Positions 5,166 to 50,962 of a DNA stretch of 64,000 nucleotides are shown here, in pieces. Every line of letters begins with the position of its first letter. Positions within the stretch are counted from its first letter, which is position 1. The position numbers and the translations under genes are program-made. This DNA is from Mustelus asterias (taxonomy: Eukaryota): the NCBI RefSeq assembly GCF_964213995.1, contig NC_135802.1, positions 137,764,001 through 137,828,000 on the forward strand. The letters are read 5' to 3'. The notes under the pieces are model-generated. The model was not told where the DNA came from and did no database searches. It saw nothing but the letters and a program-made list of their open reading frames with translations.

Positions 5166-5832
5166 AAAGGTGATAAAGAATATTTGCATTTTACGGGAGA
5201 TACATGAGCAAATAGGGGTAAGTATCGAAGAGATATTTGAAAAGAATGAAGAACGAAGATGAAAGGGCTGAAAAAGATATTTGTGACAGGGCTTTAGCTG
5301 TTATGATTTGCTTTGGGGAAAGTCCTGCTGAAAGCACCTCCTCTGTCTGAAGTGTGTTGAAAAAGCTTTCGTAGCCTTTTACCTGAAGAAAACATTACCT
5401 GAAGAAAAGCAACTCAGGTTTGGGTGACGAAACAGTCGGTTTTGAGTCTCACTTTAGAAAACCACATCAGTGTAAATTTACTCTGGGAAGTCATGGATTA
5501 CACTGATGTTTAAAATGAAAACAATTTCTTGGTCTGAGTAATATTTCCTGGATTTTATAGTTAATAATCTATAAGGGGTGTTTTACTATGTACATTTGAT
5601 AAAAACAGGGAGTTGTTTTGTAAGATTTTTCTAACGGTGTATCTTTTTACCTTGTGTGCTTAAATTTTATCTTTTGTATCAATAAACGTTCTAATTCTTT
5701 GAATTTTAAAGGTTATCACTGGAGTCCTGTGCTTTTGTGTTCAGTAGCTATCCCTCCTTGGTTTTTACAATACAAAAACAATTACTATCAACTGATTCAG
5801 ATTTCAGTCTGAGATGTGGCTTGTTCAACATT

Positions 5833-7075
5833 GTAAGAAGTCTCACAACACCAGGTTAAAGTCCAACAGGTTTATTTGATAGCACAACCTTTCGGAGTGT
5901 TGCTCCTTCCTTAGGTGAGTGAAGAGTTCTGTTCACAAACAGGGCATACATAGACACAGACTCAATTTACAAGATAATGGTTGGAATGCGAGTCTTTGCA
6001 GGTACAGACAATGTAAGTGGAGAGCGGGTTAAGCACAGGTTAAAGAGATGTGTATTGTCTCAAGCCAGGACAGTTGGTGAGATTTTGAAAGCCTAGGCAA
6101 GTCATGGGGGTTACAGATAGTATGACATGAACCCAAGATCCCCTTTGAGGCCGTCCTCATGTGTGCGGAACTTGGCTATCAGTTTCTGCTCAGCGATTCT
6201 GCGTTGTCGTGTGTCGTGAAGGCCACCTTAGAGAATGCTTACCCAAAGATCAGAGGCTGAATGCCCTTGACTGCTGAAGTGTCCCCCAACAGTTGCGTTG
6301 TGCTTGGGTGACTTTCGGGGCTGTCTTGTGAGTGTGGCTGATGAATCTGGCATTGACGCACATCCTGACAGCTTGGGCATACATGTCGAGTTGAGGGCAG
6401 CGGCCTTCCGGAGGAGTCCAATTCGACTCTTTCCTCTTCTGTTGCTGCACCGCGGATCCCTCTGTCAGCTGTTCCGGTTCATTGGCTGTCTCATTGGGTT
6501 CACTGTTGGCCTCTTGGGGTTTGTGGTAGAACCCATATGAGAACACCATCCACCAGGTACACGGTACATACTCTTGTCTACCTGATACGCTGCGGGAAAG
6601 GATGTCCTGAAGCATGGTACGTTGGGGAGACCATGCAGACGCTACGACAACGGATGAATGAACACGCTCAACAATCACCAGGCAGGAGTGTTCCCTTCCA
6701 GTCGGGGAGCACTTCAGCAGTCAAGGGCATTCTGATCTTCGGGTAAGCGTTCTCCAAGGTGGCCTCCACGATACATAACAACGCAGAATCGCCGAGCAGA
6801 AACTGATAGCCAAATTCCACATGCATGAGGACAGCCTCAACTGGGATGTTGGGTTCATGTCACACTACCTGTAACCCCCATAACTTGCTTGGGTTTGCAA
6901 AATCTCACTAACTGTCCTGGCTGGAGACAATTCCCACCTCTTTAACCTGTGCTTAACACTCTCTCCACTCGCATTGTCTATACTTGTAAAGACTTGATTA
7001 CCTGTAAAGACTCGCATTCCAACCATTATCTTGTAAATTGAGTCTGTGTCTATGTATGCCCTGTTTGTGAACACA
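5833..7075. mobile_element. Penelope-like element remnant with inverted pLTR arms and GIY-YIG endonuclease fragment
   Basis: The + frame 6537-6746 gives LVYLIRCGKGCPEAWYVGETMQTLRQRMNEH (GIY-YIG). About 5930-6285 is an inverted copy of about 6710-7075. Decayed hammerhead on - near 5883-5918. Confidence 0.85.
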
Positions 7076-7704: not shown

Positions 7705-8100
7705 AAAAGCAAATTACTGCGGCTGCTGGAATCTGAAACCAAAAGAGAAAACGTTGGGAGATCTCAGCACGTCTGGCAGCATCTGTAAGGAGAGAAAAGA
7801 GCTGATGTTTTGAGTCCAGATGACTCTTTGTCAAAGCTAAAAGGCATAGAAAGTGGGAGATGTTTATACTGTGGGGTGAGGGAAAGGAAGATGAATCATA
7901 GCCACAAAAACAAGGGGAAAGGCTGCTAATGGCAGCCCATAGAGAGAGTAGAAGGTGTGAAAGGCCTTTTCCATTTGGTCCTTCACACCTTCTATTCTCT
8001 CTATGCACTCCATTAACAGCCTTTCCCCTTGTTTTTGTGGCTATGACTCATCTTTCATTCCCTCACCCTGCAGTATAAATATCTCCCACTTTCTGTGCTT
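7705..8100. mobile_element. Penelope-derived end (UUGACAA hammerhead family) with internal inversion
   Basis: aaagcaaattactgcggctgctggaatctgaaacc...cagatgactctttgtcaaagc; about 7845-7930 is inverted relative to about 8015-8100. Confidence 0.7.
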
Positions 8101-10744: not shown

Positions 10745-11770
10745 GTCAAAGCTTTTTGTCTTCCATTCATCAGGACAATCCGTAAGAATCATTGAATCGT
10801 GCCTGCACTGACAACAATCCCACCCTATCCCCGTAACCCCATATATTTACCCTGCTAATCCCCCTAAAACTAGAGTCAATTTAACATGGCCAATCAACCT
10901 AACCTGCACATCTTTGGAGTGTGGGAGGAAACCGGAGCACCCGGAGGAAACCCACGCAGACAACGTTCAAACTCCAGTCAGGCAGTGACCCCAAGCCGGG
11001 AATCGAACCCGGGTCCCTGGCGCTGTGAGGCAGCAGTGCTAACCACTGTGCCACCGTGCCGCCCCACCAAAAATGCCAAACGTAAAGCGAACAACAATTT
11101 ATACTGCATGAGAAAAGTATTTTGATTGTTTGGCAAGTGGACCCTGATTGGTAGAGGTGCTGCCATGGAGACTGCACCAGTTAACCGATGACTGACAATT
11201 AATTGCCAAGCTTTGTTTAAATTCAAACCAAAGAAGTTGACTCTGATTGGTCAAGGCATTGCCCTGGGGAATAAAGGGGAGAATAGCTGTCACCTATTTT
11301 GTTGTGCTGGAACAGGCACAATGTGTGTACATAGGATAATTAATTTATATTAAGGTCTAACTTCCTCTGGCAATATTTGGATTAACATGCTTGTGTAAAA
11401 GTCCTTTGTGCTCTGTCTTAATACAGTTCATTTCTTTTGAACAGGTTAATGACTGTGTTAAGAGAGAGCACAAAGATCTTTTACACAAGCATGTTAATCC
11501 AAACACTGACAGAGGAAGCTAAACTTTAATATAAATTAATTGTCCTTTGCACACATTGTGCCTGTATCAGCTAAACAAAATAGGTGACAGCTATTCTCTC
11601 TGTCTGCCAAGATCAGGGCCCTGTGTATTAATATATGTGGCTTTTAGCATGTGTAACTGAGCCACACTCCAAGCCTGACTGATATCCCTAAATTGGTTGT
11701 CAGTGTTATTCTCAGCGCAATCAGGATTGTTTAGCAAATGCTGTCCAATTGCGGAATCACATCTAAAGCA
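10745..11770 (-). mobile_element. Probable Penelope-like 3' region (third hammerhead family) interrupted by a SINE and a fold-back insertion
   Basis: On -: gtc-CTGATGA-atggaagac-AAAA-agct-TT-gac, a decayed hammerhead at 10745-10776. The sequence resumes after the SINE at about 11066. Extent is estimated from a remembered shark repeat. Confidence 0.5.
10790..11065 (-). mobile_element. HE1/V-type SINE
   Basis: Reverse complement of the SINE head (ggggcggcacggtggcacagtggttagcactgc) and body. Confidence 0.9.
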
Positions 11771-13210: not shown

Positions 13211-14196
13211 GTTTGTGTCCTTTCTTTGATTTATAGACTATATTATTTAAGTCATCGGCCCAGATATTCGGCCGTGGGGTGGGAGTGTGGAATCGGGGGA
13301 ATGGAAAAAGTCCAAAACTTGGAGCTCCTTTCGCTTCGCCCACTGGATGTTTGGCAGAAACCTGTTTGGAGTCCCGTTGGGGTTCAATCACCTGTCCATT
13401 CTTGACACACTTCTTAGGTTGAAGAACAATAAGAAGCGAATATAGAGGAGACTTCAAGCTTTACTCTGGCTGTGCACTTGGAAAGGTCCACATAAAATTC
13501 CTTTCTGTCCAAGATTAACATGGTCATTAACCTGTTCAAAAGAAATGAACTGTATTAAGGCAGAGCACAAAGGACTTTTCCACAGCATGTTAATCCCAGA
13601 GGAAGTTAAACTTTAGTATAAATTAATTGTCCTATAAGCAGTATTGGGACTGCCTGATTTTTCATTAGTTTCTGTCCCAAAACCCACATGAACAATAATC
13701 TTCCCCTGTATGGGTGGATTATTTTAATTGGAAAAAATAAAAATTGTTTTCATGTTTTCATTTGGAATCTGGTGCTGTATTAACTGCCCAAAATCAAACC
13801 ATTAATATCACATCAATCAATATGGACATTATAATAAATATGTTATCCCAATTTAAAAATATGCCTTAAATGCTTATAACTACATTCTCAGAGGTGATCT
13901 TCATATCTCCCAATTTCTACTCATCGTGGCCTTAGGATTCCAATCCAGTTTCACATGGTTAAATCTACAGTTTCCCATTAATGAAACAAAAACAATTTAA
14001 ATTTCAATCGCTCCTTTAATAGAATAAAACATTCCAATGTGCTTCAAAGGACGATTATGAAATAAACGATGACACTAAATCATGAAGGAGATATTAGGGA
14101 AGATGACAGACAGCTTGGTCAAGGTGATAGGCACTAAGGAGTATCTTAAATGAGGAAAGCAAGCAGGACAGGCATAGAGGTGTAGAGAGAGTTCCA

Positions 14197-14500
14197 GTGC
14201 TGTTGGTGTTGGTTCTACTGGTGTTGGTGTTGCTGGCGTTGGTGCTGCTGGTGTTGGTTCTACTGGTGTTGGTATTGCTGGGGTTGGTGCTGCTGGTGTT
14301 GGTGCTGCTGGTGTTGGTTCTACTTGTGTTGGTGTTGCTGGCGTTGGTGTTGCTGGTGTTGGTTCTACTGGTGTTGGTGTTGCTGGCGTTGGTGCTGCTG
14401 GTGTTGGTGCTGCTGGTGTTGGTTCTACTGGTGTTGCTGTCACTGATGTTTCTGCTGCTGGTCCTGCTGCTGCGGCTGCTGCTGATGTTTCTGCTGCAGG
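14197..14500. repeat. 15-bp-unit minisatellite (ggtgttggtgctgct and variants)
   Basis: About 16 imperfect units plus flanking gct-rich repeats; stop-free in several frames (PTPAA, NTSST, LVLL). Confidence 0.9.
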
Positions 14501-14783
14501 CCATATTGCTACTCGTTCTTTTGCAATCCAAGGCACCAAGGCACCAGCCGTCCTGCTGTATCTCAGGAAAAGTACTTTCCCACTTGTAGGTGAGAAAGTA
14601 GCTGTAAGTGCTGAGTATTTATTGCAGTACTTTCATGGGGTCTAATCACATGTCGATGTTCTCACTCTGCTTTCACTGATGCCTTTCAGCAAGTCTGGGA
14701 AACCCATGGATGAAAAATTAACCTTAAAATTGTGTTAAAATATCACTCTGTTTGAGTGATCGCTGTATGTTAATAGGTAGTCA

Positions 14784-15258
14784 TGATGTGGAGATGCCGG
14801 TGTTGGACTGGGGTGAACACAGTAAGAGTTTTAACAACACCAGGTTAAAGGCCAACAGGTTTATTTGGTAGCAAACACCATTAGCTTTTGGAGCGCTGCT
14901 CCTTCATCAGATGGAGTGGAAATGTGGAAATGTGCATCTCTAAAGGTGATGGGACAAGTTGTGAAGGCTTTTATGAAAACACACAGGATTCTGGGCTTCA
15001 TAACTAGAAATATAGAAGACTAAAGCAAGGAACCTTTATAACACGCTGGTGAGGCCCTAGTTAGACTGTTGTGTTCAATTCTGGGTACCAAGCTTCAGGA
15101 AGAATGGCATGGGCATTGAGGGCACAGAGGAGATTTACTAGAATGATCCCACATTTCCACTCCATCTGACGAAGGAGCAGCACTCCGAAAGCTAATGGTG
15201 TTTGCTACCAAATAAACCTGTTGGACTTTAACCTGGTGTTGTTAAAACTCTTACTGTG
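14784..15258. mobile_element. Head-to-head Penelope-derived ends enclosing a 217-bp copy of nearby CR1 DNA
   Basis: About 14819-14927 is the reverse complement of about 15149-15258; the interior 14937-15153 matches 16238-16558 minus a SINE insert. Confidence 0.85.
15162..15198 (+). ncRNA. Minimal type-I hammerhead ribozyme motif, canonical core
   Basis: CCAU-CUGACGA-A-GGAG(CAGCA)CUCC-GAAA-GC-UA^AUGG: all core positions present, palindromic AGCU at stem III, AATAAA 12 nt downstream. Confidence 0.75.
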
Positions 15259-15959
15259 TTAATAGATAATGCATACCTTCCCGGGGAGCATGTGCATAAA
15301 CAGTCCAATGTGCTTGACTTAAACATGCAAGTCGGGTGTTTGGAGCCAGTATCACAATGTGGTCACATTTTTGTTGGATTGAATTCGCCGCCCATACCTC
15401 CCAAAGCTAAATTCCCACCTCCTTTATCTCCAGTGTGAAGTTCAGTTGATTAACAGAGTAATTTCTAGTTAGCATGGCTGAAAGTGAAGCGTGCAGGCCT
15501 CAGATCACAAGGGATATCTTATGGACATTTCTAACCTATCACTTGCTCATGAAATTATTCATGAATGCCCACTCCTTGTGTGAAGTCTTGTCCTTTGGGA
15601 CAATATCGGGGTGCCATTGTTTTGTTCCCCGTGATTCTATCCCCAAATTCAGAGGGTCATTTTCTACCTTCTGCACCAAGCAGGTTGTCTCCCCTTACTG
15701 GATGCTCATGTTGGGAGTTCAAGTCTGCACTGCACCCTATTTGCTGGCCGTTCAAAGTAAATTATGCACATAACCAAGTTGGCACAATATATTGTATCCA
15801 TCATTGAACAGGTATTGGTGGTTCTCTGAAGCCTCCAAGCTCCAGAGGCCCCAGTATCCTCTATTCTCCTTTCCCACCAAAAAACATCAGAGGTTGTGCT
15901 TGAATAGATCCACTGATTGGGGCTGGACACAGAAAGCCAATAGTTGACATGATCTGGAT

Positions 15960-17230
15960 CTTTAAATGATTGATTGGAATATAGCAGCTTATGGGACTTG
16001 AGTATACGGGGATAATTGCAAAGTTTGTGGATGACACAAAACTCAGAAATACTATAAAGAGTGAGAAGGATCGTAAAAGGAGGACATGGACTGCTGAAAT
16101 TGGCTGTCGCATGTCAGCTAGAATTTAATGGAGAGAAGTGTGACGTGATTTATTTTGGTACAGGGAACGAGAAGAGGCAATATAAATGAAATAGAGAGGG
16201 TGCAGGAAGAGAGCGACTCGGGGTACACGCATACATGTCTCTAAAGGTGATGGGACAAGTTGTGAAGGCTTTTACGAAAACACACAGGATCCTGGGCTTC
16301 ATAACTAGAAATATAGAAGACTAAAGCAAGGAACCTTTATAACACGCTGGTGAGGCCCTAGTTAGACTGTTGTGTTCAATTCTGGGTACCAAGCTTCAGG
16401 AAGAATGGTATGGGCATTGAGGGCACAGATGTGGGGGTAGGGCCTGGATGGGATTGTGGTCGGTGCAGACTCGATGGGCCGAATGGCCTCCTTCTGCACT
16501 GTAGGGTTTCTGTGATTCTGTGATTCTGTGAGAGGAGATTTACTAGAATGATCCCACACATGAAACAATCAGTTATGTGCAGAGACTAGGGAAGCATGGA
16601 TTTTTCTCTTTAGGATAGCAAAGTTTAAGGGAAAATTTGACAGAGATGTTTAAAGTCATGAGTGGCCTTGATCCAGTAAACAAGGAAACTTTTTACAGTG
16701 GCAGAATGGTCAGTTACTGTATGACACCTGGGTTTCCTCTGGGTACTCCAGTTTCTTTCAACACTCCAAGGATGTGTGGGTTTCATTGATTGGCTGTGCT
16801 AAATTGTCCCTTCGTGTCAGGGGGATTAGCAGGGTAAATACATGGGATTGCGGGGATAGGGCCTGGGGTGGGATTGTTGTCGGTGCAGACTCGATGGGCC
16901 AAAATGGCCTCCTTCTGCACTGCAGGGATTCTATTGTTCTATGATTCTGTGACACAGATTTGAGATAATTGACAAAAGAACCAGAGACTGTGTGAAGAAA
17001 AATAAATTACACAAGTGAGTGGATTGTTAAGATCAAGAGTGCATCACCTTGGCATGGCAATTGAAGCAGATTCAAAAGGAACTTTCAAAAAGCAATCGAA
17101 TAAATGCATGAAGGGGGAAGGCTCACAGGTCTATGGGGAAAGAGCAAGGGAGTGTGGCTAACTGTATAACTCTTTCAGAGCAACAGTATGATGTGCCGAA
17201 AGGCCTTCTCCAGCTGTGTCCTTCTATGAT
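15960..17230 (+). mobile_element. Old CR1 LINE RT/3' region with two SINE fragments inserted (about 16430-16530 and 16726-16950)
   Basis: aagtttgtggatgacacaaaa (KF[A/V]DDTK), acgctggtgaggccc...tgtgttcaattctgg and a CR1 tail. Confidence 0.8.
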
Positions 17231-17379
17231 TGGATGCTTCATTTTACCTGTACTCACAGAACTGAAGGGATAAGCAAAAAATTAATTCAGTTGTGGTTAG
17301 ACACGAGGAGGATTTGGATACATAAAATAGGCCCTGATCAAAATATAATTGAAGTTGTATGTTCGACGTTTATGTACAT

Positions 17380-29746: not shown

Positions 29747-30330
29747 AGAAGTCTCACAACACCAGGTTAAAGTCCAACAGGTTTATCTGGTAGCGCAAGC
29801 TTTCGGAGTCTCGCTCCTTCCTCAGGTGAGTGAGGAATTGTGTTCACAAACAGGATATATATAGACACAAACTCAATTTACAAGATAATGGTTGGAATGC
29901 GAGTCTTTACAGGTAATCAAGTCTTAAAGGTACAGACAATGTGAGTGGAGAGAGGGTTAAGCACAGGTTAAAGAGATGTGTATTGTCTCCAGCCAGGACA
30001 GTTAGTGAGATTTTGCAAGCCCAGGCAAGTCGTGGGGGTTACAGATAGTGTGACATGAACCCAACATCCCGGTTGAGGCCGTCCTCATGTGTGTGGAACT
30101 TGGCTATCAGTTTCTGCATTGTCGTGTGTCGTGAAGGTCGCCTTGGAGAACACTTACCCGAAGATCAGAAGCTGAATGCCCGTGACTGCTGAAGTATTCC
30201 CTGACAGGAACTGCCTGGTGATTGGCAAGCGGTGTTCATTCATCCGTTGTCGTAGTGTCTGCATGGTCTCCCCAATATACCATGCTTCGGGACAGAATCG
30301 CTGAGCAGAGATTGATAGCCAAGTTCCGTT
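29747..30330 (-). mobile_element. Penelope-like 3' region with hammerhead motif (about 29794-29828)
   Basis: Same family as 5833-6290. On -: cac-CTGAGGA-a-ggag cgaga ctcc-GAAA-gc-TT-gcg (core intact, stem I weakened). Confidence 0.8.
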
Positions 30331-32187: not shown

Positions 32188-32362
32188 ATGAGCAACAATA
32201 GTATGTGGCTTATCTTCAAGCTTTGTGACACAATCGTAGAATTAGACCAGCCAAATGTAACTTTGGTTTGGTGAACCTTTGGGAATATTTGTATTGGCTC
32301 ACCTATTTGTCGATCAAACTCCAGTTCTTTGTGATTTACAGTTTGGAATGCAGCTGTAAAGG

Positions 32363-32551
32363 ATGAGTTTGTGTGCCGAGATCTGCCAGTCAGAGAACTC
32401 TAACTACAACGCAGAGGGGTTGCACCAACATTATGGAGTCCGATCATATCTGCATCAGTTCTATGAAGACTGTACGGCATCAATCTGGGAGCATGAGGAT
32501 GATTTTCAGATTAAGAGATCCCCAAGCAAGTGGAGCTCTGTTCTCTGGAAG
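32363..32551 (+). CDS. NRSN1: Neurensin-1, first coding exon (63 codons)
   Basis: MSLCAEIC...HQHYGVRSYLHQFYEDCTASIWEHEDDFQIKRSPSKWSSVLWK matches the remembered neurensin-1 N-terminus (YGVRSYLHQFYEDCTASIWEYEDDFQIQRSP). Acceptor tttacag ends at 32341; donor AAG|gtatgc at 32552, phase 0. Confidence 0.96.
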
Positions 32552-34186
32552 GTATGCGCAATATTTTACTCAATATTTCAACAACTTTTAACCTCAATGG
32601 CCCAGAAATTTCTGGAAGATAATTGCAAGTTCGTGTCGCCTGGCATCATCGATGCATTATACTGTGGGGAAGAGATGCGCCAAATGTTCTGATCTGCTGG
32701 CCAATTACCATTGTTAATCCTTCCAAAACTGGAGACAAATAGCTATCAGTCTCCCAATTGTGTGAATTTAAACTGCTAAATGTGTGCTGCTAAAAATAAT
32801 GAATTTTGCTACTGCCATTTAGGGCTGGTAATTCATGTTATAAGGACCTTGTTAATGATGTGATTTAGGGTCCCTGATGTGTCATCCAATCTTGGAGGTC
32901 CCAAAAAGGAACAATGAAAGTATGAAGTCTCAACCCCTGCAGGTTGCAAATTGTTCCTAAACGTCTTTAAAGTTAATAATTTTAATTATTTTCTCACTTT
33001 TGTTTTTTCTCTTGCTACAAATCCAATCTGATTTTCCTAGTCCAGTCCCTTTGTTTTCCATTGCATATCTAATTTGACTGTACTTTACCCTATTTCCACC
33101 TCTATCATTTGTTGTCTAATTTCACTGCTTAAGGGGCTGGACCATTGGACTCAATGTTCAGGGGGTCCTAGATGCCCCATTGGCACCACCGTGTCATTAT
33201 CAATTCGCATTTGCTGCAATTTGTGCTGTACAAATTAAACAACTTGAAGGGTTAAGTAAAAACAAATCTACCATGAGATGTACTGCTCCAGCAATTTCTG
33301 TGCAAAAAGGAACATTTATGCTTTAAAAACATTAAATATATGTATACTTCCTGATTGCAAGCTTTTGGTTCTAATTGTCATCTTTTTCCATTATATATTC
33401 CTCTGCAATGATATACTCTTACCATCAGTGGCTGTGTAATATCTTCATTTCCTATTTCTAAGCTCCGTAGTCTGCACTGCAGAAAACATTCTAAGCTGGA
33501 GCTGACTCTGTTTCTCTGCTTTCTATCATTTAACTACATCGAAACAAGATCAAAACATTGTACAAAATAATGAAGACAGAATGCATGGCATTAATGTGGG
33601 AACCTACTTATGTTGGATCTTGATCAAGAGCTGTCTGGGCAGGCTAACTACCCATTTGGAGGTAGTTTAACAACAACCTAAGTAGCTGTTGCTTGGATTT
33701 TGTGAATGAGCATCTAGCACATTGATAGAGTTGCCAGTGTACAGTGGACCATCTGTAACACTATTAGGACAAAAGCCCAGAGGCGAATGAGCCACAATTC
33801 ATGTGTAATATTGTTCAGAAACAGAAAAATTGCAATGGTTTGTTTTCTTGAACAGGGAAGACAATTTATTTCCAAAGGTACTAATGCGATAAGGCATCAC
33901 ACGTTCCATTAACATTTGAATATACCCAATAAAGATGTAAATTAGCACAATCTCATGAATACAAAAGAGGCCTTGTGGTGTAAAATAGGTCAGTCTGTCC
34001 TTTTAAGACAGACTCAAAATGTTAATTGTCACAGTTATGACAGAAAAGTCCTTCATTTAGTGTGCAGTAGTTTTGTGCTTGAGGCTGTAGAAGTGGCACT
34101 ACTTTTGGCTGTTGTAACTGTGAATGGCCTTGCTGTATTGGTGATGAATCAGAGCTGGACAGTGTTTTGTTATTGTGATTTTGTAG

Positions 34187-34591
34187 GTCGGACTCATGGC
34201 TGGAACCATCGTACTTCTGATAGGAATGGCAGTGATTGCAGCCGGCTACCTGGTACCACCAAAGTTTGAAGCATTTGGAGAGGAGAAGGAGAATTTTCTG
34301 GTAGTGGATGGTCAAGCTGTCCAGTTCAATGTGGCACTGGACATCTGTAAGCTGGCAGGGGCTATTCTCTTTTGCATTGGGGGGATGATGGTGGCCGCAT
34401 GCCTCCTGATGTCCACGTTGGCCACGAGTTACTCCAAGGAAGAAAAATACCTGCAGCAGAAGTTTAAAGAGAGAATTGCGGATGCCCAAGCTTCCTGCGA
34501 GCCAGTCACTAAGGCACCAGCTCCGGGTGAGCGTAAAATCCCCATCACTTTGTCCAAAGTACACAATGTGCAGCCCACATTGGAGAGCTAA
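34187..34591 (+). CDS. NRSN1: Neurensin-1, last coding exon (134 aa + TAA; total protein 197 aa)
   Basis: Acceptor ttttgtag|GTC GGA CTC ATG continues in phase 0 (VGLMAGTIVLLIG...VPPKFEAFGE...CKLAGAILFCIGG...SYSKEEKYLQQKFKERIAD...KIPITLSKVHNVQP). Two hydrophobic segments and the typical NRSN1 tail. Confidence 0.96.
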   Translation, partial: VGLMAGTIVLLIGMAVIAAGYLVPPKFEAFGEEKENFLVVDGQAVQFNVALDICKLAGAILFCIGGMMVAACLLMSTLATSYSKEEKYLQQKFKERIADAQASCEPVTKAPAPGERKIPITLSKVHNVQPTLES

Positions 34592-35881: not shown

Positions 35882-37949
35882 TTTAATAAGGAAATTAAAC
35901 CTAAAATATAATACAACATATTAATCATCTTGCCAACAAAATATTGATAAAGTATCAATATTAAAGGATGTATTTTACATAGATATCAGTTTCTAGGACC
36001 ACACTAGAGTGTTATTACAAGATATTGTTATTTACATGATTTAAAAAGTAACAACTTATATATCCTTTCACTCTAACATATATCCAGTATACAAATTAAC
36101 ATCAACAGAATGTGCAAAAGCCATGTAATGGTTTTCCTTTACAACAAGCCAGTCATGACTGACAAAAATCCTTGGACAATGTTTCTCCAACTTCTTGGGG
36201 ACATCGTCCATTTTACAGATTATCAATGACCAAAATCAAGATCTTAAATATGGGCTTAGGAGAAAATACGAGATATTGTACCAATGATGACTTGTTCACT
36301 TCCCTAACTAACGACCCCACACACCAAAGAAAGTCCCATCCTCCGGCCAAAATGTCTGAAATCCGTCCAGTCCAAGGTCTGCTCTTGCTCCGAGAATCAA
36401 AAAGCTGGGTTTTAAATCAAGCCAGGAGGTGACATTTTACATTTTCACCAAATGGAAACATCACCCCAAGTTATGAGGAGAAATACACTGCAGCCAAGGG
36501 GAAAACAAAAAGAATTGAGATAAAAAGTGTGATGGTTTGAAATGAAACCTGAAATACTGGACTGCAACTATCACATGCGTAATGTTTAAGATTTAGAAGC
36601 AAAATTATTCAGATAAACTCAATTAAATTCCTCCTGAATGGGGTATAGGGCAAAGCAGTTTGCGATCCTTTCAGGTCCTGGAGCTGAGCCAAGACTATTG
36701 AAGGCGCATGGAGCATTGCAACCTTGATCCCATTCCCAACGTGCACAGGACAACAATGTAGAACTATGACAGTCTCATTCACTGGGGCCGTGATGATAGC
36801 TGCTGTAGGAAGTAAGTTGAGATTCTCTTCCACTCGTGGTTTGTAGGCATAACGTTAGGGTTGATGTTGTTGCTAGGTGAAGGAGGAACACATTCACAAT
36901 ATGATGAAGAAACACTCTAAAAACACTTCACTTCTCTTCCCACCACCCTTCCCCCATATAGGAGAAGGGAGTTCCTGGAGTTTATACGGTTATGTATTCT
37001 ATTGACCTCTGAGTAGCATAGTTTTAACAAATGCATAAGAAAATATTCTTTTGAATTAAATTCTCTCAAATATTTAGAATGGAACCTTGAGGCCTTGCTC
37101 CACTGAGCAGATCTCACACACAGTGGGTAACATACAGTCAAATAGTACAAAAGGAAGCTCTTCAGCCCAGCACGCATGCACTGTCTCTTTCAAAGAGTTA
37201 TCCAATTACTCATACTCCCCCACTGTTTCACCATTGCCCTGCATTTTTAATCTTTTCAAACATGTGTGTAATTCCCCATTGAAAGTTACTATTGAATCTG
37301 CTTCCACCACTTATTTCAGACACTGTATTCCAGATCATAACAACCTGTCATTTAAAAATGGGAGGTCCTGCGGCACAGTGATAGCGTCCCTACTTCAGGA
37401 CCAGAAGCTTCTGGTTCAGTTCCGATGCCAGGATTTGTAGGCCATGGAAGGAGCTATTCCCCAAAAGTGAAAAACAGTGTGTGTGAGCATATGCTTTAAA
37501 AAAGACTAAAAAAAATTCTCCCCATCTCCCCCATGATTTTCCATCCATTGATAACGTTCCCTAGCTTCATTATACTGTACACTGAGGTTGATTAAGATGC
37601 AACATTCTCTAAATACTCTGCCTCCCGGTCCATAATAACTACCATTACCAATCGTGCCATAGTCCATATGGTGCTGGGATGGTCTGGAATCTATGACCCA
37701 ACAAGAAAGTAGTGCACTGAAGAAAGTAAAGATGGCTGCAAGGAGCAGAATGATGTTTTATGGAAGAGTGTTGATCAAAGACCAATAATTGCTTCAACGT
37801 TTTTGAAATTGGGATCTGAGATACCTGTGTTGATGTAACAGTAAATGTGCTTTAGTTCATATAGAATCACAGAATGATACAGAACAAAAGGAGTCTCAAC
37901 AAAGTTCACCTCTTATACTAAATTTATCTGAACCAAATCATTCAATAGG

Positions 37950-39137
37950 GCCGTGGATGTCGTCTATATGGATTTCAGTAAGGCATTTGACAAAGTCCCA
38001 CATGGCAGGTTGGTTAAGAAGGTTAAGGCTCATGGGATACAAGGAGAAGTGGCTCGATGGGTGGAGAACTGGCTTGGCCATAGGAGACAGAGGGTAGTGG
38101 TCGAAGGGTCTTTTTCCGGCTGGAGGTCTGTGACCAGTGGTGTTCCGCAGGGCTCTGTACTGGGACCTCTGCTATTTGTGATATATATAAATGATTTGGA
38201 AGAAGGTGTAACTGGTGTAATCAGCAAGTTTGCGGATGACACAAAGATGGCTGGAATTGCGGATAGCGAAGAGCATTGTCGGGCAATACAGCAGGATATA
38301 GATAGGCTGGAAAATTGGGCGGAGAGGTGGCAGATGGAATTTAATCCGGATAAATGCGAAGTGATGCATTTTGGAAGAAATAATGTAGGGAGGAGTTATG
38401 CAATAAATGGCAGAGTCATCAGGAGTATAGAAACACAGAGGGACCTAGGTGTGCAAGTCCACAAATCCTTGAAGGTGGCAACACAGGTGGAGAAGGTGGT
38501 GAAGAAGGCATATGGTATGCTTGCCTTTATAGGACGGGGTATAGAGTATAAAAGCTGGAGTCTGATGATGCAGCTGTATAGAACGCTGGTTAGGCCGCAT
38601 TTGGAGTACTGCGTCCAGTTCTGGTCGCCGCACTACCAGAAGGACGTGGAGGCATTGGAGAGAGTGCAGAGAAGGTTTACCAGGATGTTGCCTGGTATGG
38701 AGGGTCTTAGCTATGAGGAGAGATTGGGTAGACTGGGGTTGTTCTCCTTGGAAAGACGGAGAATGAGGGGAGATCTAATAGAGGTATACAAGATTATGAA
38801 GGGTATAGATAGGGTGAACAGTGGGAAGCTTTTTCCCAGGTCGGAGGTGACGATCACGAGGGGTCACGGGCTCAAGCTGAGAGGGGCGAAGTATAACTCA
38901 GACATCAGAGGGACGTTTTTTACACAGAGGGTGGCGGGGGCCTGGAATGCGCTGCCAAGTAGGGTGGTGGAGGCAGGCACGCTGACATCGTTTAAGACTT
39001 ACCTGGATAGTCACATGAGCAGCCTGGGAATGGAGGGATACAAACCATTGGTCTAGTTGGACCAAGGAGCGGCACAGGCTTGGAGGGCCGAAGGGCCTGT
39101 TTCCTGTGCTGTACTGTTCTTTGTTCTTTGTTCTTTG
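37950..39137 (+). mobile_element. Young 5'-truncated CR1 LINE with an intact 367-aa RT C-terminal ORF
   Basis: DFSKAFDKVPH, GVPQGSVLGPLLF, YINDL, KFADDTK motifs with no stops; (ttctttg)n tail. Confidence 0.97.
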
Positions 39138-42897: not shown

Positions 42898-43678
42898 CAC
42901 AGTCCATTTAGGCATTTGATTTCTGGTCTTTTTCTGCTCTTTCTCCTCCTTTCTTTGTCTGGTTAGTACTTTTGAAGAGCTCACCTGCCTGTCCTTTTCT
43001 GTTCCATTAAACGGTTAAAAAATAGTCTCCCTACTTTGCTGTAACCGTGGGCAGGATCTGGGTTCTTGGGTCAAGACCCTGACATCAGGTGGTCACAACG
43101 CCGCATGGGATAGAAAACAGTCAACCAGCAGTGACTGGAGCCCCACTAATTTGGACAGGGGAGCGGCTTGCAGATCAGGTAAGAGAGACTAAGGGCACCT
43201 CCAACTTGAGGCAGCGACTCTCTAACTTTGTAAACCTTTAACTTAAAGCATGCCCTCAGTGGCTGGGCTGCCACGGTGAAGATGGAACCCTTCTGCAGGA
43301 CAGCCTGTGGCAGCAGCTGTGGACAGCCAGGTGGGAGGCCTCAAAGCCTGCCTGGATTGCTACAGTCCCCCCCAGCCCGGATTGCTATCACCCGCAGCTG
43401 ATCTGGTGCCCTCACCTTGAGAGCTCTAGCCTTAATAGACATTTACCTATCCTGAATTGAATACCCAGTCACTGGTGGGCAAGTAGTCCCGCCAATTCTA
43501 ATCTCACCTCCGAGAATATGACTCAGAAGCAGCATGAGTAAGATCACAGGGTAAGATCACAGGACAGGATTTCTCTAGCTGTTTTCCCAAGACTTAAGCT
43601 ACAGGTCATACTTGGGCGAACACTAATATGCATTGTTTGCCAATCCATTGGATACTTTCCATGATCCTCCCCATCATG

Positions 43679-44705
43679 ATATGGAGTTTGCCGGCGTTGG
43701 ACTGGGGTGGGCACAGTAAGTAGTCTCACAACATGGACTTCAACCCAGATAAATGCGTAGTGGTCCATTCTGGCAGGTCACATGGGATGAAGGAGTACAA
43801 TATTAAGGGAAAGACTCTTAGTACTGTAGAGGATCAGAAGGACCTTGGGGTCCAGGTCCATAGGACTCTAAAATCGGCCCCGCAGGTGGAGGAGGTGGTT
43901 ATGAAGGCGTATGGTGTGCTGGCCTTTATCAATCAAGGGATTGAGTTTAGGAGTCCGGGGATAATGATGCAGCTGTATAAGACCCTCGTCAGACCCCACT
44001 TGGAGTACTGTGCTCAGTTCTGGTCACCTCATTACTGGAAGGATGTGGAAATGATTGAAAGGGTGCAGAGGAGATTTACAAGGATGTTGCCTGGATTGAA
44101 TGGCATGCCTTATGAGGATAGGCTGAGGGAGCTTGGTCTTTTCTCCTTGGAGAGACGTAGGATGAGAGGAGACCTAATAGAGGTATATAAGATGTTGAGA
44201 GGCATAGATCGGGTGGACTCTCAGAGGCTTTTTCCCAGGGTGGAAATGGCTGCTACGAGAGGACACAGGTTTAAGGTGCTGGGGGGTAGGTACAGGGGAA
44301 ATGTTAGGGGGAAGTTTTTCACACAGAGGGTGGTAAGCGAGTGGAATCGGCTGCCGTCAGTGGTGGTGGAGGCAAACTCAATAGGGTCTTTTAAGAGACT
44401 CCTGGATGAGTACATGGGACTTAATAAGATGGAGGGTTATAGGTAGGCCTAGAAGGTAGGGATATGTTCTGCACAACTTGTGGGGCCGAAGGGCCTGTTT
44501 TGTGCTGTAGTTTTTCTATGTTTCTATGTTCTATGTTTCTAACACCAGGTTAAAGTCCAACAGGTTTATTTGGTAGCATGAGCTTTCAGAGCGTTGCCCA
44601 TTCATCAGGTGAGCGATGATGAACGGGCAACGCTCCGAAAGCTCATGCTACCAAATAAACCTGTTGGACTTTAACCTGGTGTTGTGAGACTACTTATTGT
44701 GCCCA
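43679..44705. mobile_element. Penelope-derived fold-back cassette with 9-bp TSD, interrupted by a CR1
   Basis: TSD cccatcatg at 43670-43678 and 44706-44714. Arms 44541-44607 and 44617-44683 are reverse complements. Hammerhead motif on - at 44577-44611. Confidence 0.85.
43733..44540 (+). mobile_element. Young 5'-truncated CR1 LINE inserted in the Penelope cassette
   Basis: 237-aa uninterrupted ORF (MDFNPDKC...LYKTLVRPHLEYCAQFWSP); flanked by aaca repeats. Confidence 0.95.
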
Positions 44706-45311
44706 CCCATCATGGTTAGTGGTTCACTGGATACCCTCCTCGCCTGGTGAGAGGTTCAAGGCTTTTCAGTTTTAATATCACTCCCCCACCTTCAAAAAAA
44801 CTCCCCATTGATTCAAGCTTGTCATCTTAGTTCTCTTTGTTACTTTGTTTATTTGATACTAATTTGAGTGAATTTTAACACTTTGTAGTTTTCTGTGGCT
44901 GCTGCTTTAAGGGGTTGAGTGTTGGGTTGATTGAATCCTTTATTTAAAAAAAGGATCTATTCTGTTGCAAACATATGTACAATGTCATTGTATTAAATAT
45001 AATATATTTACATTCATTCAGGGGAGGCAATGACCTAGTGGTAATATTGCTAGAACATTAATCCAGAAACTCAGCTAATGTTCTGGGGTCCCGGCTTCGA
45101 ATCCTGCCACAGCAGATGGTGGAATTTGAAATCAATAAAAAATATCTGGAATTACGAATCTACTGATGACCATGAAACCATTGTTGTCAGAAAAACTCAC
45201 CTGGTTCACTAATGTCCTTTAGGAAATGAAATCTGCCATCCTTATCTGGTCTGGCCTATGTGGTTGACTTTCAACTGCTCTTGGGCAACTAGGGATGGGC
45301 AATAAATGCTG

Positions 45312-45470
45312 ACGTGGAGATGCCGGCGTTGGACTGGGGTAAACACAGTAAGAAGTCTCACAACACCAGGTTAAAGTCCAACAGGTTTATTTGCTAGCAA
45401 AAGCCACTTTGGTAGCTTTTGCTACCAAATAAACCTGTTGGACTTTAACCTGGTGTTGTGAGACTTCTTA
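45312..45470. mobile_element. Penelope-derived fold-back cassette lacking the hammerhead, 12-bp TSD
   Basis: TSD caataaatgctg at 45300-45311 and 45471-45482; near-perfect inverted arms of about 55 bp around cactttggta. Confidence 0.85.
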
Positions 45471-45579
45471 CAATAAATGCTGGCCAGCCAGTGACACCCA
45501 CACCCCACGAGTAAAACCCTAAAATCAACGTCATTTCCAGCCCAGGAGTATATATAATCAGTCACTCGCACCAATGTGT

Positions 45580-47812: not shown

Positions 47813-49371
47813 TTTGAGAATGGAATTTTTTGTTTTTAAATCCCCAAGTGTCCAACCAGATAGACAGTGGCAGGTTATTATCCTAAAATCATTTAAAAAT
47901 TGATTTGGAGAAGCGTCGGCCATGCAGGTCATCGTGCCTGTTCTGTCACTGTGAAAGAGCCATCCATTTAGCCCCACCCTCCGACTCATTCACAATCCTG
48001 CAAACTCTTCCTTTTCAGTTTTACCCAACTGCATTTTGAAGGTTGCTATGAATCTGCTTCCTGGTCTTTTAAAATATATCTTTGGAAAATCTGCAATTTA
48101 GAAATCAACTTTGTCTCAGCTGTCTTGTAATTTTAACTTCTGGTGCCGGAAAAAAAACCAGGTGACAGCGAATTGGCGACCTGTTTTGCAGATTACCCAA
48201 TTTCTTTTGCTGAGAAAGGAAAATGTTGCAAAGTGTAAGATGGGTTATTGATCTTCTTGTGGCTGATTTCCCCAACATCCTGGGGTTACCAATGGCCAGA
48301 AGCTGAGCTGGATAAGCCAAATATGTAGTGTGGATACAAGAGCAGATCAGAAGCTGGGAATTCTGTGGTGAATAACTTACTTCTTGACTTCCCAAAGCCT
48401 GTTGGCCATCTACAAAGCTCAAGTCAGGAATGTGATGGAATACTCTCCACATCCCGGGTTGACTGCGGCTCCTGCGACACTCACGAAGCTCGACACCATC
48501 CAGGTCAAAGTAGATGCTTTGATCAGCACTCCATCTATTAACTGCACTGCAGCAACTCTCCAAGGCTCCTTTGACAGCCTTCCAAACCTATGGCCTTTAC
48601 CACCTAAAAGGACAAGGGTAGCAGACACATGGGAACCTCACCAGCTACAAGTTCCCCTCCAAGTCACTCACCATGCTGGCTTGGAAATATATTGTTGTTC
48701 ATTCATTCATTGTATCGACACTACATGGACTGTAGTGGTTCAAGAAGTGGCTCACCTCATCACCTTCTCAAGGGGCAACTGTGGATAGACAATAAAAACT
48801 GTCCTTGCCTGCACTGCTCGCATCTTGAGAGCGAATTTAAAAACATCTTAACTCCCGTCGTGTCATTGTGGTGGATGGAGGTTCATTAATTTGTTGATTT
48901 GATCATATTATGAGGACAACTGATTTCAATTTTGAAAACTGTACATTCTTTATATTCAAGAGAAGTCCGAGGTATTTAGTTTAGGGTAAGAGATAATTAC
49001 TTTCAGCAGATGCCAGCATACCAGAGTGAACTATTCCAGAGTTGTAAAGCAGGTAGAAAAGCAACAGAGAAATAATTCATATTTTTATGGAGCCATTAGG
49101 CATCCTCAGAATGTGCTAAAACATTTCACAACCAGTGAATTACTGTTGACGTTTGGTCACAGCTTTATAATCAAATTTGTACCCAACACTGCTGCACAAG
49201 CAGCAAATGTTAGATCACCAGTTCATCCAATTTGGTGATTTTGTTTAAGGGCTGAATGTGGCTTTCAGCTTTGAGAAAAATCTCTCATTCTCCTTTGAAT
49301 AGTGCCATGGAATGTTTTATGGACACTTCTGAGGGCAATAGCTCAAAAGATAAAGATCAAAAGCTCATTAC

Positions 49372-50361
49372 CTCGCCATGTTCTTCAGTGGGAGTCACTT
49401 CATTCTCTTTGTCAGTCTCTTCTTCCACAGAACTGTCTTCCAACTCCTGATGTATGTCATCATTTTGGAATTCATCTTCTTGGCGATGAAAATATTTATC
49501 TTCATGATTTTCTTTCATTCGATCAAGGTCTTGCTCCCCTTCTTCTGCAGGGTCAGCAATGTCTTCTTTTACCTGGTGGTGAGTTCCAGTTTCTTCACTC
49601 ATCGTCTCTTCTTTATCAGGAAGATCATTCCGAAGAAAATCGTTTTCTTGATTCTCTACCATTTGATCAATATCTTCCACCTCTTCTTCTGCAGGGTCAG
49701 AAATTTCCTCTTCTATCGGTTGATCAATTCCATTTTCTTCACCCATCATCTCTTTTTTATGAGGAAGATCATTCTGATGAAAATCTTTTTCTTCTTGATT
49801 CTCTTTTGTTTGATCAATATCTTCCACCTCTTCTTCTGCAGGGTCAGAAATTTCTTCTCCTTGATGATCAATTCCAGTTTCTCCATCTACTGTCTCTTCT
49901 TTATCAGGAAGATCATTCTGTTGAAAATGTTTATCTTCTTGATTCTCTTCCGTCTGATCAATATCTTCCACCTCTTCTTCGGCAGGGTCGGAAATTTCTT
50001 CTTCTATTGGTTGATCAATGTCATTTTCTTCACCCATCATCTCTTTTTTATGAGGAAGATCATTCTGATGAATATATTTATCTTCTTGATTCTCTTCCGT
50101 CTGATCAATACCTTCCACCTCTTCTACTTCTTCAGGGTCAGAAATTTCTTCTTCTTCACTGGTCTTCCCTTCTTTATGAGGAAGGTCATGCTGATGAAGA
50201 TCTTCCTCTACGTGACAACTCGTAAAGATTTCTTCGTCATTGAAAACACCATTTCGAAGTCTTCGCTCCATGTTTGGAGAATCTCCATCTCCGCCGTGGC
50301 TACTTTCCTCTCTACAGAGTTCTGGTGGATCCTCCTCCTGATCTACAGTCTCTGCAGGCCT
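49372..50361 (-). CDS. DCDC2: DCDC2 internal exon (990 nt, phase 0-0) with an expanded acidic tandem repeat
   Basis: Branch point/acceptor ctcactaactgctcttctactttgctcag|AGG CCT GCA GAG ACT GTA GAT CAG GAG GAG GAT gives RPAETVDQEED, matching remembered human DCDC2 DQ|RPAEIVDEEED. Open for 330 codons to the donor GAG|gtaatg. Convergent synteny with NRSN1 supports the call. Confidence 0.85.
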
Positions 50362-50473
50362 CTGAGCAAAGTAGAAGAGCAGTTAGTGAGAACAACACAC
50401 AAGAAGCTAAAACATCTCAAGTGCCAAAATGTCACCGATCAGCAATGGGAGAGTCAAATTACTTTCTATTCAA

Positions 50474-50962
50474 GGATGTGGAGGGTAAAAAGGAGATTTA
50501 CAAGGATGCTGCCAGTAATGGAGAATTTTAGATATGAGGAAATATTGGATAGGCTGGGGTTGGTAGGATTGGAACAGAGGAGGCTAGGGCAGGTTTAATC
50601 AAATTATGAGGGGCCTAGCTAGAGTGGTGAGGAAGGGTCTGTTTCTCTTAGTTGACAGATGAATAACCAGTGGGCATAGATTCAAAGTAATTGGTAGAAA
50701 GAATAAAGGGGAGGTGAGGAGAAATATTTTCACCCTGAGGGTGATGCGACACGGACCTCACTGCCTGAAAGGTTAGTAGAGGAGGAAGTCCTCATTTCAT
50801 TTCAAAAATAATTGGATATGCATTTAAAGTGCTGTCATCCACAGGGACCACAGGACCAAGAGCTGAAAGGCAGGATTAGGCTGGGTAGCTCGATTTTGAC
50901 CAGCACTAACATAATGCGCTGAATGGTCTCCTTCTGCTTCATGTGTTTATATTTCTATGTAT
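50474..50962 (+). mobile_element. Old CR1 3' fragment
   Basis: RVKRRFTRMLP...YEEILDRLGL...EQRRL. Confidence 0.8.

Follow-up and report, generated by a model that had tools for sequence, protein, structure and literature searches.

A 217-bp copy of neighbouring DNA at the centre of an inverted Penelope-like insertion in Mustelus asterias

Insertions of endonuclease-bearing Penelope-like elements (EN+ PLEs) have, in the account of PMC8557442, an inverted 5'-truncated copy and a one-sided tail of 30-40 bp as their standard features. The same account still describes the formation of the inverted structure and the joining of the second end as undefined, and the in vitro study in PMC11167929, where purified Poseidon protein cleaves and extends both strands, stops before second-end joining. 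In Adineta vaga, unrelated sequences are found between solo pLTRs flanked by target-site duplications (TSDs), and an NRPS gene was moved by Pen3a (PMC3846280). Templated insertions at L1 sites are known from 22 cases (bioRxiv 10.1101/2024.08.27.596794) and 3 cases (PMC11702581), the former report describing uptake of nearby genomic templates of <250 bp via an SDSA-like route. As to hammerhead motifs, opposite-strand pairs 100-700 bp apart are reported in PMC4209133, and non-LTR retrozymes are described as head-to-tail tandem units, each with a hammerhead (bioRxiv 10.64898/2026.07.22.740005).

We analyzed a stretch of 64,000 nucleotides of M. asterias DNA (NC_135802.1, positions 137,764,001 to 137,828,000), hereafter the window. 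A sequence-only reading had proposed that it contains an inverted cassette between two head-to-head Penelope ends with a near-exact copy of downstream DNA inside. Alignment confirmed the coordinates and the count of substitutions: 14937-15153 (217 bp) corresponds to 16238-16429 joined to 16534-16558 with 3 substitutions (98.6% identity), located at 14974/16275 (a CpG transition, in the copy), 14990/16291, and 15108/16409. The 16.2-kb neighbour is the best match to the copy in the 64-kb window, where the runner-up reaches 69% over 120 bp. For comparison, contigs of four coded public runs (organisms A, E, and H; run X21 is from organism H) were examined over 14540-17360; run X23 yielded short pieces alone among the rows listed. 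The features of the locus are as follows.

14768..14779, + strand: left TSD, 12 bp; at the empty site of organism E, 14777 is followed directly by 15267
14780..14815, - strand: one-sided 36-bp Penelope-like tail, with no counterpart on the right arm; matches the paralogue tails at 45310-45341 and about 43674-43705
14816..14927, - strand: left pLTR arm, 3' end outward; in its hammerhead core an A at 14889 replaces G12
14928..14936, + strand: 9-nt junction filler, in which the final bases of the arm recur together with 2 further nt, as read from the sequence
14937..15153, + strand: 217-bp copy of the downstream LINE fragment, in direct orientation and without the SINE, by alignment
15149..15153, + strand: microhomology common to the copy end and the right arm, 5 bp against the left arm and 4 bp against the 29.7-kb paralogue
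15149..15260, + strand: right pLTR arm, without tail; 15234-16048 lies in one X21 contig with 0 differences
15158..15200, + strand: minimal type I hammerhead motif, core 15166-15194, predicted cut 15194/15195; motif scan, with helices I and II in the fold
15211..15216, + strand: AATAAA, belonging to the pLTR as such; of the 8 aligned copies that cover the site, 7 have it
15257..15268, + strand: right TSD, with one mismatch at 15266 and the first 4 bp common to the arm
16006..16741, + strand: old degenerate LINE RT fragment containing the donor; tblastn to the RVT_1 ORF at 37932-39056, E 3e-17, many stops
16238..16558, + strand: donor of the copy, 970 bp from the insertion site and 1301 bp start to start
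16430..16533, + strand: young 101-bp SINE 3' fragment plus 3-bp duplication, missing in A, E, and one H contig

The two pLTR arms are 112 nt each, 96% complementary, and placed head-to-head with their 3' ends outward, and the cassette has the inverted 5'-truncated arrangement of EN+ PLE insertions. The tail accompanies the left arm only, and its length is within the PLE range. The cassette itself has no ORF and no RT region. The arms are 77-80% like the pLTR ends at 5827-5921 and 29756-29842, and the ORF remnants adjoining these ends match the Pfam GIY-YIG domain with E 6.5e-4 and 0.013, both below the curated cut-off. The LINE RT fragment, which we take to be CR1-type, is orthologous in the public contigs of organisms A and E. 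Of the earlier structural proposals, the inverted cassette between Penelope ends stands, with its start shifted from 14784 to about 14780 (TCATGA at 14781-14786 recurs in the tail of the paralogue near 43.7 kb). The flanking duplication is likewise real and identical at 11 of 12 positions; the longer decayed TSD of 17-18 bp was rejected, the empty site in E fixing its length at 12 bp.

Comparison of this locus with the described systems revealed both common and distinct features: (i) EN+ PLE insertions (PMC8557442; PMC3846280; PMC11167929) likewise show head-to-head pLTR ends, a one-sided tail, an AT-rich site, a pLTR hammerhead motif, and a short TSD (12 bp here versus 8-10 bp in the Adineta examples), whereas the junction here holds 217 bp of traceable host DNA without an ORF and the junctions that these sources describe hold a palindrome or a few bases; (ii) the A. 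vaga captures also have non-element DNA between pLTRs inside one TSD and a demonstrated empty site, but their cargo is read in PMC3846280 as mobilised in trans, with the NRPS gene between direct rather than inverted pLTRs, and the description of these captures gives no local source, in contrast to the source 970 bp away found here; (iii) templated insertions at L1 sites similarly involve a genomic template of <250 bp copied in during integration, but they belong to another element class, represent somatic or cell-culture events, and use templates typically within 15 bp, whereas both ends here are element 3' ends; (iv) templated insertions by polymerase theta (PMC12426944) share the microhomology at the join, the patchwork filler, and the break-flank template, but are usually <25 bp, against an atypical 217 nt here; and (v) the minimal type I PLE hammerheads of PMC4209133 have the same core, extra base before helix II, G10.1-C11.1 pair, palindromic AGCU, and short helix I, whereas here one arm has lost G12 and there is no same-strand partner for a dimer.

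Capture between pLTRs and local templated insertion at L1 junctions are already published. Our literature search, which covered mainly the main texts of openly accessible papers, found no Penelope junction insert traced to neighbouring DNA, and in particular none with a source about 1 kb away.

The two ends of the copy are joined differently. The previously noted microhomology at the right junction is present as CCACA (15149-15153), which is the first CCACA after the start of the copy. The chance of at least 5 bp of microhomology at a random junction is 0.005 and that of at least 4 bp is 0.016; the right junction has 4-5 bp. On the left, exact microhomology with the donor amounts to 0 bp, and 9 added bases (14928-14936) largely repeat the end of the arm. 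Copies of the final 7 nt of this filler lie at 15290, 16575, and 17578, a post hoc observation that was not counted as evidence.

The public contigs establish the direction of copying. Contigs of organism H (run X21) are nearly identical to the corresponding parts of the window. In organism E, which serves as an outgroup with 138 differences in 1465 aligned bases (9.4%) from the window and H, one contig passes directly from 14777 to 15267 and runs on through the donor. Organism E therefore carries the site without the cassette but with the donor; the sequence at 16.2 kb is the older one, and the TSD is 12 bp. Organism A (53 differences in 1180 aligned bases, 4.5%) also has the donor; however, its contig joins 14693 to 15626, and this deletion of 14694-15625 covers the site, making organism A uninformative on the empty site. 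The deletion spans the same site as the cassette, either as an independent event or as the mark of a fragile spot. Within run X21, the contig of record 11 terminates precisely where the left TSD does, at 14779. This might reflect an empty allele in organism H, but record 12 shows no break at the rejoining point.

The event is young. Copy and donor differ at 3 of 217 positions (1.4%), fewer than would be expected of a copy older than the divergence from A (P 0.011) or from E (P 1e-6), and a G at 16276 is common to the copy and to the donor of the window and H, whereas A and E have an A there. The arms differ from each other at 4 of 112 positions, 3 of them at CpG, and the copy from its donor at 3 of 217, 1 of them at CpG. 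Outside CpG, the differences are 1 in about 106 for the arms and 2 in about 213 for copy and donor, about 0.9% each. The totals do not differ (Fisher p 0.23), at the low resolution that 4 and 3 differences allow. Given this similar divergence, the capture probably took place at insertion or soon after. Thus, of the earlier proposal of template switching onto the neighbour during insertion or repair, the local copying, its direction, and its recent date are upheld, its approximate coincidence with insertion is supported within these small counts, and the switching itself is considered below as a mechanism.

The SINE in the donor comprises 101 bp (16430-16530) and a 3-bp duplication (16427-16429 = 16531-16533), and we presume it to be HE1. 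As previously noted, it is missing from the copy, which joins the equivalents of 16429 and 16534. It is equally missing from the donor of A, of E, and of one organism H contig (X21 record 13), which extends 405 bases to the left and 226 to the right of the join with 1 difference. The copy and the SINE-bearing donor have 28 bases in common right of the junction, which is shorter than the 31-mer of the graph behind these contigs (we assume k = 31), and a chimera through the copy is therefore unlikely. The SINE is probably a polymorphic, very young insertion. Since a SINE-less allele exists in H, the missing SINE does not date the capture, and the claim that the capture took place before the SINE arrived is not supported; the SINE was rejected as a clock.

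Among the contigs listed, none spans an arm-interior junction; of the outer junctions only the right one is crossed, with 27 arm bases where 31 are required. The summed contig depth over the interior, which is not a copy number, is 279 in X21 (single-copy about 15), 134 in A (5.4), and 130 in E (15), and this crude measure gives no sign of cargo amplification. The summed depth of the arms, again not a copy number, runs to millions. At the inner end of the arm (14920-15014) it is 21021 in X21, 3162 in A, and 28 in E, with the same restriction on copy number; the pLTR variant there may be young and rare in E.

The explanation toward which we lean, with confidence barely above even, is a twin-primed insertion closed by switching of the top-strand cDNA to nearby chromosomal DNA, followed by microhomology annealing. 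A Penelope-like element would cut both strands of the AT-rich site 12 bp apart, and both 3' ends would prime reverse transcription of the pLTR. Two short cDNAs would result with their free ends facing, head-to-head, with a tail on one side and no ready homology between them. The end of the top-strand (left) cDNA would then slip and prime on the bottom strand about 1 kb to the right, where resection from the right end of the break, or strand invasion, would give access to the donor strand. After copying of 217 nt by a host polymerase or the element's RT, the strand would be released, its new CCACA end would anneal to the right cDNA end, and fill-in would seal the gap. We infer in this scheme the twin priming, the order of the two junctions, and a DNA rather than an RNA template.

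Several observations agree with this scheme. Organism E has the empty site together with the donor, and the 12-bp TSD is preserved. The low divergence between copy and donor and their common G at 16276 also count in its favour, as do the two-strand activity of the Poseidon protein (PMC11167929) and the uptake of nearby templates by L1 (bioRxiv 10.1101/2024.08.27.596794). The direct orientation of the copy and a donor lying to the right of the insertion site fit priming by the top-strand end on a bottom strand exposed by resection. A clean microhomology on the right accompanies a messy filler on the left, and a copy that stops at the first CCACA after its start is expected if the partner end was fixed. 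Against it, the event is single, its inner junctions lie outside the contigs listed, and the age match is of low resolution. The arms end within a few bases of each other, whereas other cassettes end asymmetrically, and near-equal ends fit twin priming only if the 5' end of the RNA lay there. The left junction, where priming should have occurred, has no microhomology. Finally, both the length and the distance far exceed what is described elsewhere, the length for polymerase theta (PMC12426944) and the distance for L1 (bioRxiv 10.1101/2024.08.27.596794).

The near-equal arm ends would also be accommodated if the element landed as a near-perfect unspaced palindrome whose apex broke later, by cruciform or hairpin cleavage, and was patched from a local template that stabilised the inverted repeat. 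Both arms do end at the same element position, and with the copy taken out the ends would form a near-perfect palindrome. Unspaced inverted repeats are reported to be cleaved in cells, with spacing abolishing the cleavage (PMC3300023), and palindromes are described as common at inverted Penelope junctions (PMC3846280). We nevertheless regard such later repair as unlikely: arms and copy look equally old, so the repair would have had to follow soon, the arm ends are kept to the base without resection loss, and cassettes with 4- and 9-nt spacers persist in the window. A single cDNA could also account for both arms: after detaching from the RNA and being extended along the donor, it would have folded to pair with its own TGTGG and served as its own template for the right arm. 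The left arm (14923-14927) offers an exact 5-bp match, the two arms could have been identical when formed (3 of the 4 differences are at CpG), and self-priming has been proposed for head-to-head junctions (PMC3846280). However, 34 of 213 positions of the copy offered a 5-nt snap-back on the left cDNA, and the one used coincides with the inner end of the arm. A fixed partner end, as in the twin-primed scheme, explains this position without coincidence, and folding back appears quite unlikely.

If the template was instead RNA, the RT would have switched from the RNA of the element onto a nascent transcript from the neighbourhood that covered the donor. A Penelope RT was present at the site, template jumps have been proposed for Penelope captures (PMC3846280), and a neurensin gene lies 16-18 kb downstream. 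This jump seems to us distinctly unlikely, as the ORFs give no sign of donor transcription: of the 7 tested between 15232 and 17383, not one has a Pfam match, and the repeat ORF at 14078-14632 has no match. An assembly artefact, a dispersed family of cassettes with this interior, or later gene conversion would agree with the lack of interior junctions among the contigs listed, but each is extremely improbable given the substitutions private to the copy, among them a CpG transition, and the 4 differences between the arms. In addition, the empty site lacks the interior altogether, and relative to single copy the interior depth of X21, which does not measure copy number, is comparable in magnitude to that in A and E, which both lack the cassette. 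Local copying at a Penelope inversion junction, the core claim, is common to the twin-primed scheme, the later repair, the fold-back, and the RT jump.

The sequence-only reading had also described the locus as a hammerhead-bearing cassette for local gene capture, with a self-cleaving motif and AATAAA placed directly 3' of the captured DNA. The first part holds for one arm: the right arm alone has an intact hammerhead core with helices I and II, and the core of the left arm is mutated at G12 (14889). The hammerhead call rests on sequence, as the isolated motif folds no better than shuffles (z -0.37, -0.62, and -1.39, the first for the 15158-15200 fold). Rfam at the gathering score gave 0 matches in the 64 kb, ARAGORN likewise gave 0, and scans with a conserved arm motif found 0 loci in metagenome contigs, viral contigs, and prokaryote genomes. 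If the whole cassette is transcribed, the left arm is computed to pair with 27 of 29 core positions, and the right-arm hammerhead is predicted to be sequestered in the full-cassette RNA. Minimal hammerheads of this kind are thought to need a same-strand partner or the help of a protein.

The other parts of that description do not hold. Both the ribozyme motif and AATAAA are standing parts of the pLTR, and the predicted cut lies between the cargo and AATAAA; cleavage would therefore detach the cargo from the element 3' end. The cargo is a stop-ridden piece of a dead LINE RT without gene sequence, and gene capture or transduction was rejected on this ground together with the lack of an amplification sign in crude depth. 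A non-LTR retrozyme was likewise rejected, the arms being inverted and single rather than head-to-tail tandem. There is thus no evidence here of gene capture or of a working ribozyme, and the duplicated piece of dead LINE DNA is an inert fossil.

Head-to-head cassettes are common. Of the 15 joints listed (from 1815), 12 connect a left arm with a right arm and show depth in all four runs; among the 12 filler rows listed (from 800), 10 are arm-to-arm, their fillers measuring 1-15 nt; the filler table covers at most 40 nt and therefore cannot count long captures. The window has 4 head-to-head pairs, and local capture is seen in this one alone; the spacers of the other three are 4 nt, 9 nt, and 308 bp (6295-6602), the last with no other match in the window. 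The 308-bp spacer is held by a larger Penelope-like pair with a GIY-YIG remnant (5827-7075), and the 9-nt spacer by an asymmetric pair inserted at the tail of a LINE (44541-44708). A small cassette at 45300-45482 has an exact 12-bp TSD. Its two arms extend just as far as the equivalent of the base that follows the predicted hammerhead cut, and in 4 of the 10 listed arm-to-arm fillers the left arm likewise reaches this base. Such stops may be genomic evidence of cleavage in vivo, or may be caused by a short palindrome at that point; in PMC11167929, cleavage in vivo is described as not seen in RNA reads. Two more long inverted repeats (7844-8098 and 11279-11598) are unlike these pLTR arms.

The site itself is a neutral, inert fossil, but it is mechanistically informative, as it records second-end joining with an intact TSD, two facing cDNA ends, and a bridge of known source, orientation, and distance. 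It is doubtful, yet worth considering, that in sharks the centre of head-to-head Penelope insertions is routinely filled with 100-250 bp copied from chromosomal DNA about 1 kb away, perhaps by the RT of the element acting on DNA. If so, the abundant cassettes would form a readable archive of second-end joining and a steady source of short local duplications, occasionally including an exon or a regulatory sequence. Since head-to-head cassettes occur in all four runs, a survey of their interiors could test the polarity of resection, the distance, and RNA versus DNA as the template.

The Pfam scan of the window covered 232 ORFs, drawn from 264 repeat-poor ORFs of at least 55 aa and 3 added by hand, and matched neurensin (2) and ALKBH8_N (1) and no others. 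Two tandem arrays without a Pfam match are open in several frames: an array of 15-bp units just left of the cassette (14137-14526), Pro/Thr-rich on the - strand and overlapped by the ORF 14078-14632, which has no usable ESM Atlas match, and an array of about 147-bp units (49299-50598), acidic on the - strand. The neurensin matches correspond to two coding stretches on the + strand at 32360-34588 (PF14927, E 2e-17 and 2e-31).
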